Notes under the pieces: model-generated
The model's input: the letters and a program-made list of their open reading frames with translations, nothing else
What the model was told of the DNA's origin: nothing
The model's database searches: none
Assembly: GCA_964518505.1 (NCBI GenBank)
Contig: CAZFGT010000005.1
Coordinates: 20,358-84,357, forward strand
Length of the DNA stretch: 64,000 nt
DNA from: an uncultured Anaerolineaceae bacterium
GTDB taxonomy: Bacteria; Chloroflexota; Limnocylindria; Limnocylindrales; CSP1-4
Direction: 5' to 3'
Shown: in pieces, positions 28,471 through 33,583 of the stretch
Numbering within the stretch: the first letter of the stretch is position 1
How the letters are laid out: each line of letters starts with the position of its first letter
Made by a program: the position numbers and the translations under genes

Positions 28471-29484
28471 TCAACCCTGGATCGCCCTAGCCGCCTCCGG
28501 CGCGAGCACGAGGTGGCCGAGGGTCGGGCCCGCCGATGCGGTGGTCACCTGCGCACCCGCCGAGCGGGGCCGATCTCCCGTGGCCCATCCGACGACGATA
28601 TGGCCGAGCCACGCCAGTGCGCCCACGTAGGCGAACGGCGCCGCGCCGGTCAGGGTCGTCACGATCAACAGCGCCAGCGCAAGGGCGGGTTGGTGCAGCA
28701 CGCTGTGGAGCATCACCATCGCCGGCCGTCGACGCCAGACGAACCGCGGCACGTCCGGGACGATGCCGAACAGCAGCAGCGGGACGAGTCCGACGCCGAG
28801 CTGGGAGGCCTGGGTACTGGCGAACAGGGCCAAGGCAAGGCCTGGGACGAGCCACAGGTGCCGCGGCCGGAGGCGCAACCGACGGCCGGACGCAGGCTCG
28901 CCCGCGGCGCTGCCAACGGCAAGTGGCCCCGAGGCCGCGGCGTGTGGAGCCGGTGCGTGGGCGCGACGGGCATCGGCCGCGGCAGCAGCATCGCGGGGCT
29001 CCAGCACCACGACGGCGGTCGGGCGCGCACGACGTGCGGCCAGGCCATCGACATCGGCGCCCCAGCCGGGGTACTCGATCACCTTCGCCCAGAGCCGGTC
29101 GCGCTCGTCGCCCGAGGCGACACGGGCGCGGACCGCTCGCGGCCCGCTGACGAGCTCGACCGTCGCCTCGGGGTTGGCCTGGAGGTTGAGCCACCAGGCT
29201 GGTTCGGCCTTGTCCCAGCCGTTCATCGCGACCGTCACGAGGTTCAGACCGTCCTCGTAGTAGCCGACGATGGCGACGCGCGCCTTGCCCGATCGGCGCC
29301 CGAGGGTCTCGAGGCTCAGCATCCCGAACCGCCGACCCGCCTCTGGCGAGGCGAGGCCCATCCGCCCTTTGCTGAGCCGGTAGATCGCGCGCTGGGCGAT
29401 CCAGAAGGTGCGGATCGCGAACCGCGGAGGGGTTCGGACGGTCTGCCTGTGTTCGGCGAACTCGCCGATGATCGCCTTCGTCAT
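28471..29484 (-). CDS. fusion protein: deazaflavin(F420)-dependent nitroreductase-family (DUF385/Ddn-like) N-terminal domain plus a DUF4260-like 4-TM C-terminal domain
   Basis: The N-terminal 150 aa (MTKAIIGEFAEHRQ ... ARVAIVGYYEDGLNLVTVAMNGWDKAEPAWWLNLQANPEATVEL ... RDRLWAKVIE) resemble PF04075. A hydrophobic 4-helix C-terminus follows. GAAAGGAAG lies upstream of the ATG at 29484. Confidence 0.55.
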   Translation of the reverse strand: MTKAIIGEFAEHRQTVRTPPRFAIRTFWIAQRAIYRLSKGRMGLASPEAGRRFGMLSLETLGRRSGKARVAIVGYYEDGLNLVTVAMNGWDKAEPAWWLNLQANPEATVELVSGPRAVRARVASGDERDRLWAKVIEYPGWGADVDGLAARRARPTAVVVLEPRDAAAAADARRAHAPAPHAAASGPLAVGSAAGEPASGRRLRLRPRHLWLVPGLALALFASTQASQLGVGLVPLLLFGIVPDVPRFVWRRRPAMVMLHSVLHQPALALALLIVTTLTGAAPFAYVGALAWLGHIVVGWATGDRPRSAGAQVTTASAGPTLGHLVLAPEAARAIQG

Positions 29485-29577
29485 GGCGGTACTTCCTTTC
29501 TGTCCCAAGGGGGACGCGATTCGTCGAGGGGATGAAGTGCGAAAGGGCCCCGGAGTCCGGCTCCGGGGCCCATTCGG

Positions 29578-30321
29578 TCAGGCGGCGGCGAGTGCCGGTG
29601 CGCCCCTCTGCTGCCGGTCCTCGGAGGCGGGGATCGGAGCTGCCTTGAACCCATGGAACGTGAGGTACAGGCCCAGGAAGGCCTCCCAGATGATCTCGGG
29701 GCCGGTCATGATCCCCTGCAGCGGGGAGCCCAGCGGGATCACCCCGAGCAGGATGGCCGCCGCCACGGTCACGAGGAGCGGACCCCCGACCAGGCCGAAC
29801 AGCGCCATGCGCCGTCCCACCAGGCCGGACCGGTACATCAGGTAGCCCAGGATCAGGCCGGTCCCGATGCCGTCGGCGAAGCTGGGGCCGAGCAGGAAGG
29901 TCCATTGATGGATGGCGAGGAAGGTCTTGTCGATCGCCATGAGGGCGCCGGCATCGGTGCCGGCCGCCGTCTGGCGGAGGGTCACGATGGTGAGCAGACT
30001 GAGCAGGCCGATGAGGATGAAGGTGCCCTCGACGAGCCGTTCGGCGACGTAGGCGAGCGCGAGGGCTTCGTTCGTCCGCTTGAGCAGCGGGAACAACACG
30101 ACCGCGCACCCGATGTTGGTGACGATCAGGAACAACTCGAGGAACGCGCCGAGGAACACGCCGGTGCTAGGGCCGGACCCGGTGATGTAGCCGGGATCAC
30201 TCAGGATGTTCCCGTAGGCCAGGACCGCGCCGATCGAGGTGATGAACGTAAGGATGAAGAGCACGCCCACGGCGAGCGCGGTCTTTCGCGAGGTAGTCAC
30301 GTTGGAACTCCACTTCTTCAT
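29578..30321 (-). CDS. DUF4386-like polytopic membrane protein
   Basis: 247 aa, about 7 TM helices. The 5' end is locally lower in GC. The ATG overlaps the stop of the upstream 96-aa ORF (ATGA). Confidence 0.5.
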   Translation of the reverse strand: MKKWSSNVTTSRKTALAVGVLFILTFITSIGAVLAYGNILSDPGYITGSGPSTGVFLGAFLELFLIVTNIGCAVVLFPLLKRTNEALALAYVAERLVEGTFILIGLLSLLTIVTLRQTAAGTDAGALMAIDKTFLAIHQWTFLLGPSFADGIGTGLILGYLMYRSGLVGRRMALFGLVGGPLLVTVAAAILLGVIPLGSPLQGIMTGPEIIWEAFLGLYLTFHGFKAAPIPASEDRQQRGAPALAAA

Positions 30322-30605
30322 CTGGATGCCTGGTTTGGTTCAGTTGTCGGATGCTCAGGAGTCGATGGCTGGATCTCGGCGACCGAGATCAGCGACAGGC
30401 CGAGGTCGTTGACCTTTCGCAGCAGGCCATGCAGCGCAGCCTGATCTGCGATCGGGCCTCGGATGACGGTCGTCCCGTCGCTCTCCCGGGTGAGGCTGAG
30501 CCCGTCGAACCAGGCGGCCCACCTGGCATCGAGGTGGCCCTGGAGGCGCACCTCGTAGCCACCGGGTTCGTGGTGGCGGCTGCTTCGTGCCGGTCGATCG
30601 GTCAT
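30318..30605 (-). CDS. small hypothetical protein (96 aa), unknown function
   Basis: A strong AAGGAGAG Shine-Dalgarno lies 5 nt upstream of the ATG at 30605. The product starts MTDRPARSS...YEVRLQGHLDARWAAWFDGLSLTRESDGTTVIRGPIADQAALHGLLRKVNDLGLSLISV. I do not recognise a family. It is translationally coupled to the DUF4386 gene. Confidence 0.5.
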   Translation of the reverse strand: MTDRPARSSRHHEPGGYEVRLQGHLDARWAAWFDGLSLTRESDGTTVIRGPIADQAALHGLLRKVNDLGLSLISVAEIQPSTPEHPTTEPNQASR

Positions 30606-30660
30606 GGCTCTCCTTGTGCTCCTCCGCCCCGCGCTGCTTGCCTGTCGGTGTGGGCTTGCG

Positions 30661-30732
30661 TGGTGTGAGCACAAGGTCGAGGCGACGGTGGTGAGCGCGC
30701 GTCACCACATCTGGTGATTCGATGTGGTGATT
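30661..30732. promoter_or_regulatory. cluster of repeated GGTG(T)GA / ATCTGGTGATT motifs upstream of the 96-aa ORF operon and downstream of the LAL regulator gene
   Basis: GTCACCACAT (30701-30710, inverted copy), ATCTGGTGATT (30709-30719), ATGTGGTGATT (30722-30732), plus degenerate copies GGTGGTGAG (30686-30694) and TGGTGTGAG (30661-30669). Confidence 0.4.
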
Positions 30733-30865
30733 TCGCCCGGACGGGGAACGGAGCGAGAGCGCCGGTCAGCCCCGTCCGCACACCGGTCCGGTCACCCCAT
30801 GGCCGGTCGCGCCTGGCGGGACTCGGGATCTAGGGGCCGCGCCGCCGGACGGCGATCGTCTGGCC

Positions 30866-33583
30866 CTAGCCGAGCAGGTCGAGTTCGCCCCCGCGGCGGA
30901 CGGCGGCTCGACGGTTGTTGACGCCGAGCTTGGTGTAGATGTTCTTGGTGTGGGTCCGCACGGTGTTCAGGGACAGCACCAGCTCACTGGCGATGCCCGG
31001 GCCATCGAGGTCCGATCTCAGCAACCGGAGGACGTCGAGCTCTCGCTCGGTGAGCGGCTCCACCAGGGCCTGCTTGCTGGTCGCCTTCTCCCCCCCGGTG
31101 CCAGGCGCGGCTCGAAGGCGACGTACGTAGTCCGGGACGATCTGCCGCCTGGCCGCGGCGTCGAGGAGCGTGGCCATCGCGCGGCCCTCCTGGAGGAAGG
31201 TGCGCACGAAGCCCTCTGGCTCGGCGAGCGTGAGCGCTCGTGCAAGCGGCACGAGCGCGCCGGCCGTGTCGCCTCGAAGCTGGCTCTCTAACGCCTGGAG
31301 GACCAGGACCTCGATGACGCTGCCCATCCTCGCCCCGTCGTCCGCCGCACGCAGGAGTCGCTCGAGGAGGCTCGCGGCCACCGCGAGCGAAGGGGGATGC
31401 TGGGTCGACCGGGCCAGTAACACCCGGGCAAGGGTGACGTGCTCGAACTCGCGCAGGTAGTCGAGATCGTCGTCGGCCGACAGGCCCACGTCACGGGCCC
31501 ACCGTAGCGCCTCGGCCTGACGCCCCTGGGCGAGCCACACCCGGGTCCTGAGCGCGGCGACCGGCCGCACCAGGGGCAGGAAGTGACTCACGTACTGGCG
31601 CTCCGCTTCGTCGAGCAGGCCCAGCGCCGCGTCCCGGTCCCCCTCAGCCTCATGCACACGCGCCATCGCGACACGCCAGCGGTACGGGTTCTGCTCGAGG
31701 GCGGCGAGCCCGCCCAGCTCCGTGCTGGCGGCCAGGTGCTTGGCGGCGGCATCGAGCTCGTCCCGCTCGAGGAAGATCTCGGCCATCCCGGTGTGCATGT
31801 CCGCGGCTCCGCGCACCACCGGCGCGCCGAGCGGGGTGGCGCGTGCCAGCCCGTGCTCGTACGTACCCAGGGCGTCCCGGAGGCGACCCTGCGCGATCCG
31901 GATGTCCGCCAGGGAGATGGCGCACCCGATCGTGTCGGAGACGTACCCCGCCCGTTCAAGGTTGGCGGCGCAGGCGACGTACCGACGGTGGCCTTCCTCG
32001 AGATCGCCCTTCCGCCATGCGGCGAGGCCGAGGAATCCTTCGGCCGACCCGCGGAACACGTAGTCATCGTCGGCGACGACCTCGAGCGCGCGGCGGGCGA
32101 AGCGGATCGTGGCCGCGACGTCGCCGAGGGCAAGGGCCTGGGCGCCGCGGAAGATGGCGATCGCGGTCGGCAGGTCTTGGTATCCCGCCTCGTGCGCGCC
32201 GGTCGGCGGGGCGGAGGGAGTGCCCGCAGCGTTCTCCTCCAGCCATCGTTCCGCAGCCCGGAGGTGCGCCTCCACCCCCTCGAGCTCGCCGTTGAGCAAC
32301 AAGGCCCCGGCGTAGTGGACGCTCAGCACCGGCCGGGTGGCGACGACGTCGTCCGGCAGGGCGCGCAGCCAGGCGAGCGCAGTCGTCTCCTGTCGAGCCT
32401 GGCGCATCGCGGGGATCGCCAGTTCGACCAGCGTCGCCGCCCGCTCGAAGTCGGCGGCCGCCATGGCGTGGCGGATCGCCTCCGTCGGCGCACCATTCCT
32501 CTCGAACCACGCACTCGCACGGCGGTGGAGTTCTGGGACCTGCTCGGGTTGCTCCTGCTCGAGGTGGGCCCCGAGCACGTCGGCGAACAGACGGTGGTAG
32601 CGGTACCACTGGCGGCGGTCGTCGAGGGCGACGAGGAACAGGTTGGCGCGGTCCAGCTCCTGCAACATCGCCCGCCCATCGTCGCGACCGATGACGGCAT
32701 CGCAGAGCGCCGCGCTCAGCCGGTCAAGGATGGAGGTCTCGAGCAGGAAGGTCCGGATCGACGCGGGCTGACGGCGCAGGACCTCCTCGACGAGGTAGTC
32801 GACGATGTAGCGGTCGTCCCCGGCGAAGCCGGCGATGAACCCAGCAACGTCGTCGCGTCCCTGCATCGAGATGGCTGCCAGCTGAAGGGCAGCGATCCAG
32901 CCTTCTGTGCGACCCTCCAACGCGGCGACATCGCTCGCGCCCAGGTCGAGCCCCATCACCTCGTTCAGGTACGCCGCGGCCTCAGTCGGCGTGAAGCGCA
33001 GGTCGGCCGCGCGTATCTCGGTCAGTGTGCCGCGCCCTCGCAGGCGACCCAGCGGAAGCGCGGGGTCGGCGCGGGTCGTGATCACGAGGTGGATCCGCGG
33101 CGGAAGGTGCTCCAGGAGGAACACCATCCCAGCCCGGATCTCAGGCGTATCGACCTCGTGGTAGTCATCGAGGACCACCACGACGTCCTCCGGCACCGCA
33201 TTGAGCTCGTTCAGGAGTGGGGCGAGGATGGACTCGATGGGCGGCGCTTGCGGCTCGCGCAGGGCAGCGAGCGCACTCGCGCCAACCCCGGGCGCGACGG
33301 TCCGGAGCGCGGCGATCAGATAGACCCAGAACGTCCCTGGCTCGTTGTCCGCGTGGTCCAGCGACAGCCATGCTACCGAGGGTGCGCCGGAAGGGAAGGA
33401 CGCCAGCCATTCCGCCAACAGCGTCGTCTTGCCGAAGCCGGCGGGCGCTGAGATGAGCGTGAGGGTCGATTCGAGCCCGCGGCGGAGTCGTTCGCTGAGC
33501 CGTGGTCGTTGGACCAGGCCGCGTCGCGGCTTCGGGACGTAGAGCTTCGTCTCAAGCAGCGGGCCGGGATTGTTCGCTGTCAT
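30866..33583 (-). CDS. LAL/MalT-family large ATP-binding LuxR-type transcriptional regulator
   Basis: 905 aa. N-terminal P-loop NTPase (LISAPAGFGKTTLLAEW), a central TPR-like helical region, and a C-terminal LuxR HTH (LTERELDVLRLLRSDLDGPGIASELVLSLNTVRTHTKNIYTKLGV). Confidence 0.85.
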   Translation of the reverse strand: MTANNPGPLLETKLYVPKPRRGLVQRPRLSERLRRGLESTLTLISAPAGFGKTTLLAEWLASFPSGAPSVAWLSLDHADNEPGTFWVYLIAALRTVAPGVGASALAALREPQAPPIESILAPLLNELNAVPEDVVVVLDDYHEVDTPEIRAGMVFLLEHLPPRIHLVITTRADPALPLGRLRGRGTLTEIRAADLRFTPTEAAAYLNEVMGLDLGASDVAALEGRTEGWIAALQLAAISMQGRDDVAGFIAGFAGDDRYIVDYLVEEVLRRQPASIRTFLLETSILDRLSAALCDAVIGRDDGRAMLQELDRANLFLVALDDRRQWYRYHRLFADVLGAHLEQEQPEQVPELHRRASAWFERNGAPTEAIRHAMAAADFERAATLVELAIPAMRQARQETTALAWLRALPDDVVATRPVLSVHYAGALLLNGELEGVEAHLRAAERWLEENAAGTPSAPPTGAHEAGYQDLPTAIAIFRGAQALALGDVAATIRFARRALEVVADDDYVFRGSAEGFLGLAAWRKGDLEEGHRRYVACAANLERAGYVSDTIGCAISLADIRIAQGRLRDALGTYEHGLARATPLGAPVVRGAADMHTGMAEIFLERDELDAAAKHLAASTELGGLAALEQNPYRWRVAMARVHEAEGDRDAALGLLDEAERQYVSHFLPLVRPVAALRTRVWLAQGRQAEALRWARDVGLSADDDLDYLREFEHVTLARVLLARSTQHPPSLAVAASLLERLLRAADDGARMGSVIEVLVLQALESQLRGDTAGALVPLARALTLAEPEGFVRTFLQEGRAMATLLDAAARRQIVPDYVRRLRAAPGTGGEKATSKQALVEPLTERELDVLRLLRSDLDGPGIASELVLSLNTVRTHTKNIYTKLGVNNRRAAVRRGGELDLLG

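Follow-up and report, generated by a model that had tools for sequence, protein, structure and literature searches.

A conserved four-box array at the promoter of a small orphan operon is a probable operator of the neighbouring MalT-type regulator

Introduction

The closest described counterparts of the element reported here are the operators of MalT-type activators. The enterobacterial MalT box is GGGGA(T/G)GAGG, with the core GGA(T/G)GA, and overlaps the -35 region (quoted in PMC7567727). MalT must be assembled into a ligand-induced multimer to bind its boxes, which it does cooperatively, before recruiting RNA polymerase (PMC4381067), and four-site MalT promoters have been described, namely pulAp and malPp800 (PMC10427625). 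In Actinoplanes sp. SE50/110, a MalT-like activator acts through a palindrome, TCATCC-N5-GGATGA, which lies over the -35 region of 17 mapped promoters and whose 3' end is 34.4±1 nt from the transcription start (PMC7567727). In this study we analysed a cluster of four short boxes in a 64-kb stretch of DNA from an uncultured Anaerolineaceae bacterium (contig CAZFGT010000005.1; this whole stretch is referred to as the window, and coordinates count from its first nucleotide). The cluster is located between a gene encoding a MalT-type STAND regulator of the LAL group and a small operon that starts with a gene for a 95-residue protein. To our knowledge, few actinobacterial LAL/MalT-type regulators have a defined DNA site. 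Comparison with related loci leads us to propose that the core promoter of the operon, composed of the 95-residue, DUF4386 and F420-type genes, probably contains the cluster as a built-in four-box operator, and that the neighbouring LAL regulator would activate the operon in a MalT-like manner.

Results

Four heptamers of the TCACCAC/GTGGTGA type are found within 43 bp (30688-30730) of the 260-bp intergenic region between the LAL gene and the 95-residue open reading frame (ORF), three of them direct and one inverted. All the genes around this array, i.e., those for the LAL regulator, the 95-residue protein, the DUF4386 protein and the F420-type protein, are on the minus strand. The elements of the array and of the promoter, with positions relative to the predicted transcription start, are as follows.

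30724 to 30730, minus strand: box 1, TCACCAC, direct, about -64 to -58; the least conserved box
30711 to 30717, minus strand: box 2, TCACCAG, direct, about -51 to -45; left half of a quasi-palindrome
30702 to 30708, plus strand: box 3, inverted (TCACCAC on the plus strand, GTGGTGA along transcription), about -42 to -36; right half of the quasi-palindrome, abutting the -35 region
30688 to 30694, minus strand: box 4, TCACCAC, direct, about -28 to -22; inside the -35/-10 spacer
30702 to 30717: core quasi-palindrome TCACCAGATGTGGTGA (TCACCA-N4-TGGTGA), with its centre at -43.5; across the family, the consensus is a perfect palindrome, TCACCACATGTGGTGA
30673 to 30678, minus strand: -10-like hexamer GACCTT, about -12 to -7, placed by aligned relatives
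30666, minus strand: predicted transcription start, an A, the seventh nucleotide past the hexamer, placed by alignment with leaderless relatives; it gives a 61-nt leader

The core of the array boxes is (A)ATCACCAC, and the pitch between boxes 1 and 2, which is 12 bp in most relatives, is 13 bp in the window. The clustering is not a product of chance. In the window, which has a G+C content of 72%, the hexamers TGGTGA/TCACCA occur 28 times in total, with four of these occurrences within 45 bp at this site; when the window was simulated 2000 times with a first-order Markov model, no cluster in 45 bp exceeded two hexamers. Neither the 11-mer ATSTGGTGATT nor the palindrome TCAYCA-N4-TGRTGA has another exact match in the 64-kb window.

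The cluster had originally been noticed in the bare sequence as three good copies of a motif, GTCACCACAT (30701-30710), ATCTGGTGATT (30709-30719) and ATGTGGTGATT (30722-30732), all written for the plus strand, and these are present as described, the latter two being direct copies 13 bp apart from start to start. The original prediction added two degenerate copies further upstream, which are in fact downstream along transcription because the genes are on the minus strand. One of them, GGTGGTGAG (30687-30695), was wrongly called degenerate: its GTGGTGA heptamer (30688-30694) is perfect, and it corresponds to box 4, which is among the best conserved in relatives. The other, TGGTGTGAG (30661-30669, plus strand), does exist but does not belong to the operator, as it is unconserved as a box in any relative and overlaps the predicted start. 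The ORF start at 30605 and its distance of about 100 bp from the cluster are correct, but the ORF has 95 codons plus a stop rather than 96 residues.

The array is conserved in a large number of related loci from soil Actinomycetota and Chloroflexota. Our sample from a genome collection consists of 80 loci, mostly from metagenome-assembled genomes of Actinomycetota and Chloroflexota, in which the identity of the 95-residue protein ranges from 53 to 81%, and three near-identical metagenomic loci (protein identity of 92-98%) have an unchanged gene order. In the near-identical loci, hardly anything changes in the block that runs from box 1 to slightly beyond the predicted start, whereas the flanks are variable, and one of these loci (L083) has a 29-nt deletion downstream of the block. 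The array was found upstream of homologues of the 95-residue protein in 81 of 82 evaluable loci by local alignment, and a strict pattern recovered it in 78 of 83. A metagenome scan that used the 16-mer palindrome alone identified 120 contigs, of which 89 contain the full array and 82 a homologue of the 95-residue protein directly downstream, which brings the total to about 170 loci (genome and metagenome). The family consensus is aaTCACCACatcaaTCACCACATGTGGTGAtgc..gCTCAyCACAT......cTAsCTT.cGATCA. In each box, the TC..CA positions hardly vary, unlike the flanks. Of 78 arrays, 40 have TCACCAC and 19 have TCATCAC as box 1, the TG..GA positions of box 3 are invariant in 76 arrays, and the quasi-palindrome has the form TCACCA-N4-TGGTGA in 46 of 78 arrays and is the perfect 16-mer in 17 of 78. 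A position-weight scan of the window and of 0.83 Mb of related loci recovered the array once per module and nowhere else; leaving aside second modules, no further array was found in front of the LAL gene, in the rest of the window or in the 0.83 Mb of loci.

The boxes are also in fixed register with a promoter element. The spacing between boxes 3 and 4 is 7 nt and that between box 4 and a downstream hexamer is 9 nt in all 167 arrays matching the regular expression, and box 3 ends 23 nt before this hexamer (-36) in all arrays. The hexamer is of the TANNNT type (TAGCTT, TACCTT or TACGTT in most relatives), with A2 and T6 almost invariant. An in-frame ATG or GTG of the 95-residue gene is found 6-7 nt past the hexamer in 31 of 159 arrays; a second procedure gave 39 of 157. 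Such leaderless mRNA arrangements are common in Actinobacteria. Because leaderless relatives start 6-7 nt past the hexamer, we take the hexamer to be the -10 element and the seventh base that follows it to be the start, from which we infer a transcription start at 30666 in the window. The boxes are upstream of this inferred start and would therefore be promoter DNA, not RNA. No recognisable -35 hexamer was found in these promoters, which have a conserved ATGC after box 3 instead. A scan for sigma-70-type consensus promoters and terminators detected no sigma-70-type promoter, the -10 element being seen only by comparison with relatives. As for the predicted 61-nt leader, it folds no better than shuffled sequences (z=+0.86). 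Around 60 relatives (e.g., L009:365-432, L002, L026, L050, L095 and L187), AT-rich genomes included, have a leader of 64-70 nt with a conserved ...CGCAACGCCGGCGGAGATCCATCCAGGC... stretch. RNAalifold finds no structure in this conserved leader motif (GGAGATCCATCCAG), which is absent from the leader in the window.

The gene immediately upstream of the array encodes the candidate cognate regulator.

30866 to 33583, minus strand: LAL/MalT-type STAND regulator gene, 905 residues, with an NTPase domain, a MalT-like TPR sensor and a C-terminal LuxR/GerE helix-turn-helix (HTH) at residues ~843-896

Its Pfam domains are AAA_16, TPR_MalT (1.8e-63) and GerE. The PDB entry for MalT, 8bob, matches with E=5.7e-59, and BLASTP aligns the protein with Escherichia coli MalT collinearly and end to end, with 29% identity (E=5e-77). 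The recognition helices, LNTVRTHTKNIY in the LAL protein and ATTIKTHIRNLY in MalT, are very similar. The NCBIfam MalT model gives 418.6 bits (E=4.9e-125), which does not reach the equivalog cutoff of 537. As judged by these comparisons, the protein is a member of the MalT family of STAND proteins, or a paralogue, and not MalT itself, since its bit score is under the NCBI equivalog cutoff.

The regulator gene travels with the array. About 74 of 83 loci encode a LAL homologue (44-92% identity) no more than 5 kb from the array. In 64 loci, it is on the same strand with its C terminus at most 2.5 kb upstream of the array, the distance being below 400 nt in 52 of them; in a few loci, the LAL gene is downstream or divergent. 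More importantly, one residue of the recognition helix varies together with the boxes. Where the bracketed residue in SL[N]TVRTH is Asn, 47 of 52 loci have the canonical TGGTGA as box 3, and where it is Ser, none of 10 does. Ser-type loci have TCATCAC, TCCCCAC, TCAACAC or TCAGCAC boxes, and their box 3 is altered to match. In a neighbour-joining tree of the C-terminal 400 residues of the regulators, Ser forms appear in at least five separate places beside Asn-type sisters, examples being L017 versus L063/L020, L053 versus L042, and L013/L069 versus L019.

More distant LAL paralogs (41-47% identity) are associated with the same palindrome, TCACCACATGTGGTGA, again 23 nt from a hexamer, here TACGTT, without box 4 (L086:6557-6572, L112, L166, L195, L197, L114:2076-2091 and L178:863-878). 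The first gene downstream in these loci encodes a multi-pass membrane protein of ~230 residues (MTITP...), with a faint match to DUF4386 (E=0.0085). The palindrome, which accompanies LAL paralogs with different first genes, therefore follows the regulator family and not the 95-residue gene. In L114 and L178, the palindrome is ~40 nt before the start codon of the LAL paralog itself, a location that could reflect autoregulation. A separate observation concerns a Chloroflexia contig (L077) with two complete tandem modules, each comprising a LAL gene and downstream genes, with arrays at L077:4879 and L077:9491. The two arrays differ (TCCCCAC/TGGGGA versus TCATCAC/TGCTGA), and so do the recognition helices of the LAL proteins (SLSTVRSH and SLPTVRTH), so that L077 may contain a natural pair of orthogonal regulator-operator sets in one genome.

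Downstream of the array, the putative operon comprises the following features.

30610 to 30615, minus strand: Shine-Dalgarno sequence AAGGAG, read from the sequence, 4 nt 5' of the ATG at 30605 to 30603
30318 to 30605, minus strand: first operon gene, 95-residue protein (95 codons plus stop)
29578 to 30321, minus strand: second operon gene, DUF4386 membrane protein of 247 residues (PF14329, 2.8e-37), overlapping the stop codon of the 95-residue gene
28471 to 29508, minus strand: third operon gene, 345-residue protein of the deazaflavin (F420)-dependent nitroreductase/F420H2 quinone reductase family (PF04075; TIGR00026)

The DUF4386 gene is directly 3' of the 95-residue gene in most of 83 related loci, and an F420-type gene is downstream in about 20. 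The 95-residue protein has no Pfam or NCBIfam family, and a homologue search shows that it belongs to a family of more than 4500 members. Its predicted fold is ferredoxin-like, beta-alpha-beta-beta-alpha-beta (mean predicted local distance difference test score of 72), of the ACT-, HMA- or acylphosphatase-like type, and the family has the invariant motif W..WFDG...DQAALHGLL. Comparison with the PDB gave nothing significant, either by fold (best E=0.016) or by sequence, and a predicted fold this generic is no functional lead. DUF4386 has zero matches in the searchable literature. In the F420-type protein (345 residues from the predicted ORF start), the family domain is confined to residues ~42-170, and the C-terminal ~175 residues have no family match.

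Two further repeats flank the array. Upstream, a G+C-rich hairpin, CGGACGGGG-N23-CCCCGTCCG (30738-30778), is found ~90 nt past the LAL stop codon, directly before box 1. It has no U-tract, its stability is not above that of shuffled sequence, and L081 and L083 retain only part of it. One possible role is that of a weak terminator or insulator separating the LAL gene from the promoter of the operon. Downstream, CCTTGTGCTC (30676 to 30667) and GAGCACAAGG (30621 to 30612), on the minus strand, form a perfect 10-nt inverted repeat, the 3' arm of which overlaps the Shine-Dalgarno sequence of the 95-residue gene. Both arms are invariant in L081-L083 despite the 29-nt deletion between them in L083, and an 8-nt version is present in L010. 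A helix sequestering the Shine-Dalgarno sequence was considered and rejected since the 5' arm is at -10 to -1 of the predicted promoter and thus would not be transcribed. The repeat could be relevant to LAL read-through transcripts.

Discussion

The main outcome of this analysis is the association of a MalT-type regulator gene with an array of boxes that is built into a core promoter, and we consider it very likely that the regulator binds the array next to it. The original prediction that the cluster is an operator through which the adjacent LAL controls the downstream module is thus upheld by comparative evidence, namely by conservation in fixed register, synteny, the co-variation of helix and boxes, and a MalT-like geometry. 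Its motif, when followed through the 64-kb window and ~0.8 Mb of related loci, occurs as an array only at this promoter. In the mechanism that we propose, the MalT-type STAND regulator encoded immediately upstream would bind its ligand and ATP and oligomerise, its LuxR-type HTH domains would occupy the boxes cooperatively, and, from the palindrome formed by boxes 2 and 3, centred at -43.5 in a promoter without a good -35 element, it would recruit RNA polymerase as MalT does. That the effect is activation rather than repression is what we infer by analogy. Activation is favoured because of the class II-like position of the palindrome, because there is no recognisable -35 hexamer, and because the two characterised relatives activate.

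Several observations weigh against this proposal. The -10 hexamer in the window is weak, as GACCTT has a G for the usual T at position 1. The boxes match those of MalT only in part, GTGGTGA here versus a core of GGA(T/G)GA in MalT: G(T)GGTGA has the G-TGA positions in common with the MalT core, variant lineages have GATGA, and the E. coli consensus is not matched. This difference fits the differing residues in the recognition helices. Co-variation between the helix residue and the boxes, in which kinship was judged only by eye on the neighbour-joining tree, is no more than suggestive. Four loci with an array (L012, L058, L065 and L067) have no LAL gene within ±5 kb. Finally, a box 4 in the -35/-10 spacer is more what one would expect of a repressor than of a class II activator.

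This last point is the starting point for a different reading, in which the LAL protein would bind the array as a repressor or dual regulator, with boxes 3 and 4 excluding RNA polymerase until the ligand releases or rearranges the oligomer. Box 4 lies at -28 to -22, between -35 and -10, and box 3 ends at -36. Moreover, actinobacterial promoters are often active without a -35 consensus, and the absence of a -35 element is no proof of activator dependence. Negative regulation has been reported for at least one Streptomyces LAL (PMC9628970). However, MalT and the Actinoplanes MalT-like protein act as activators from an equivalent position with respect to the start, in the paralogous subfamily the palindrome is at an unchanged distance with box 4 missing, so that the core geometry would be activator-type, and MalT-type STAND proteins bind DNA only as a ligand-activated multimer (PMC4381067), all of which makes repression unlikely in our view. 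The four arrays without a nearby LAL gene raise another question, which is whether the boxes are bound by some other transcription factor, either a global regulator that is conserved or one of the operon's own products, with the LAL gene being merely a syntenic neighbour. We find this quite improbable. A global regulon is at odds with the absence of the array elsewhere in the window and loci, and the operon offers no good candidate, as the 95-residue product has no HTH and a predicted ferredoxin-like fold, and DUF4386 is a membrane protein. Furthermore, the recognition-helix residue of the LAL protein co-varies with the boxes in several lineages, diverged LAL paralogs have the same palindrome beside different target genes, and the half-site and geometry resemble those of known MalT sites.

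Inverted repeats in such an arrangement could also act as hairpins, either in RNA, e.g., as an attenuator or riboswitch-like leader in a read-through transcript from the LAL gene, or as DNA cruciforms, the alternative helices for the RNA version being box 1 with box 3, box 2 with box 3, and box 3 with box 4. In the window, boxes 1 and 3 are part of a perfect 10-bp inverted repeat with a 9-nt spacer, and a double substitution in L081 preserves their complementarity. We give almost no credence to this explanation. An Rfam scan of 30200-31000 at E<=10 returned only noise, the palindrome of boxes 2 and 3 has no loop, leaderless relatives put the boxes upstream of the start site, and the array is just as well conserved in loci whose upstream gene is something other than the LAL gene, or is divergent from it (L001-L007 and L069). 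Across 78 arrays, variable stem columns are mostly uncompensated (4 compensated versus 16 unpaired for columns 19:30, and 5 versus 13 for columns 30:42), and hairpin models pairing boxes 2 and 3, 3 and 4, or 1 and 3 were all rejected, in RNA as in DNA, because co-variation is weak and most changes break pairing. The change in L081, seen when L081:2913-2982 is compared with 30702-30732 of the window, consists of ACATCG to ACAGCG after box 1 and of CAGATGTG to CAGCTGTG between boxes 2 and 3. It looks compensatory, but the helix is not maintained in the wider family, and it may result from a templated quasi-palindrome mutation or from chance. We regard it, together with the 10-bp repeat of boxes 1 and 3, as a lineage-specific curiosity.

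What does the locus offer? For a widespread orphan MalT-like regulator, comparative data alone give a consensus of the boxes at nucleotide resolution, the register of the core promoter and a candidate specificity residue. The regulator-operator pair is directly testable, and an inducible promoter would be a handle on both the ligand and the function of the module. On a larger scale, we tentatively raise the idea of a self-contained sensor-output cassette, made of the regulator, the four-box promoter and the 95-residue and DUF4386 genes, which would have spread over at least two phyla (Actinomycetota and Chloroflexota), with its operator specificity retuned several times by one helix change, Asn to Ser (TCACCAC to TCATCAC/TCCCCAC). 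Across this spread, the regulators are 55-80% identical. If this doubtful scenario were true, the placement of box 4 within the spacer would point to an activation geometry that is undescribed for MalT, for example an open-ring protomer contacting the spacer or sigma, and the cassette would provide natural orthogonal pairs of STAND regulators and operators and a tractable model of how STAND multimers read several DNA sites.

How does the array compare with known systems? One parallel is with the mal regulon of E. coli and Klebsiella (malPp, malKp and pulAp), in which promoters also have multiple short asymmetric boxes. In the E. coli malPp sequence, TCATCC and TCCTCC boxes 13 bp apart are followed by an inverted GGATGA, and this direct-direct-inverted order is shared by boxes 1-3 of the array, the proximal inverted box ending beside -35 in both. 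There are also clear differences. Boxes 2 and 3 are fused here in a 16-bp palindrome, whereas their counterparts in malPp are ~17 bp apart, an extra box 4 is present in the -35/-10 spacer, and the target genes, unlike those of the mal regulon, are unrelated to maltodextrins. We know of no counterpart of this spacer box among described MalT promoters. The 16-mer palindrome itself has zero occurrences in the searchable literature.

The Actinoplanes motif is similar in other respects. Its outer half-site (TCAyC...GrTGA) is common to the array, it also overlaps -35, the 3' end of the motif here is 36 nt from the predicted start, and the array, like the Actinoplanes motif, would control poorly annotated, non-mal genes. 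However, the Actinoplanes operator is a single palindrome with N5, found at 17 promoters in a 51-gene region, and is backed by start sites and a mutant transcriptome, whereas the array has N4, two flanking direct boxes and one predicted promoter per module. In the luxI promoter, a palindromic lux box with its centre at about -42.5 partly takes the place of the -35 element. The array, centred at -43.5, is similar in position and would likewise be read by a LuxR-type HTH. Unlike LuxR activators, the regulator is a STAND NTPase without an autoinducer-binding domain, and the array consists of four half-site-like boxes rather than of one 20-bp palindrome. Actinobacterial PHO boxes, the sites of PhoP, are direct repeats in the same orientation with an 11-nt pitch and a GTTCACC-like core. 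These and other direct-repeat sites of response regulators are ruled out by the 12-13 nt pitch and by the inverted, palindromic copy, and no phosphate-related genes are found nearby. Repeated boxes at -35 are what a specialist would expect of a LuxR-type STAND activator, and no such expectation is overturned here. On these comparative grounds, the array is, as a predicted operator, a well-defined addition to the MalT/LAL class, dedicated to one small orphan operon and kept across phyla.

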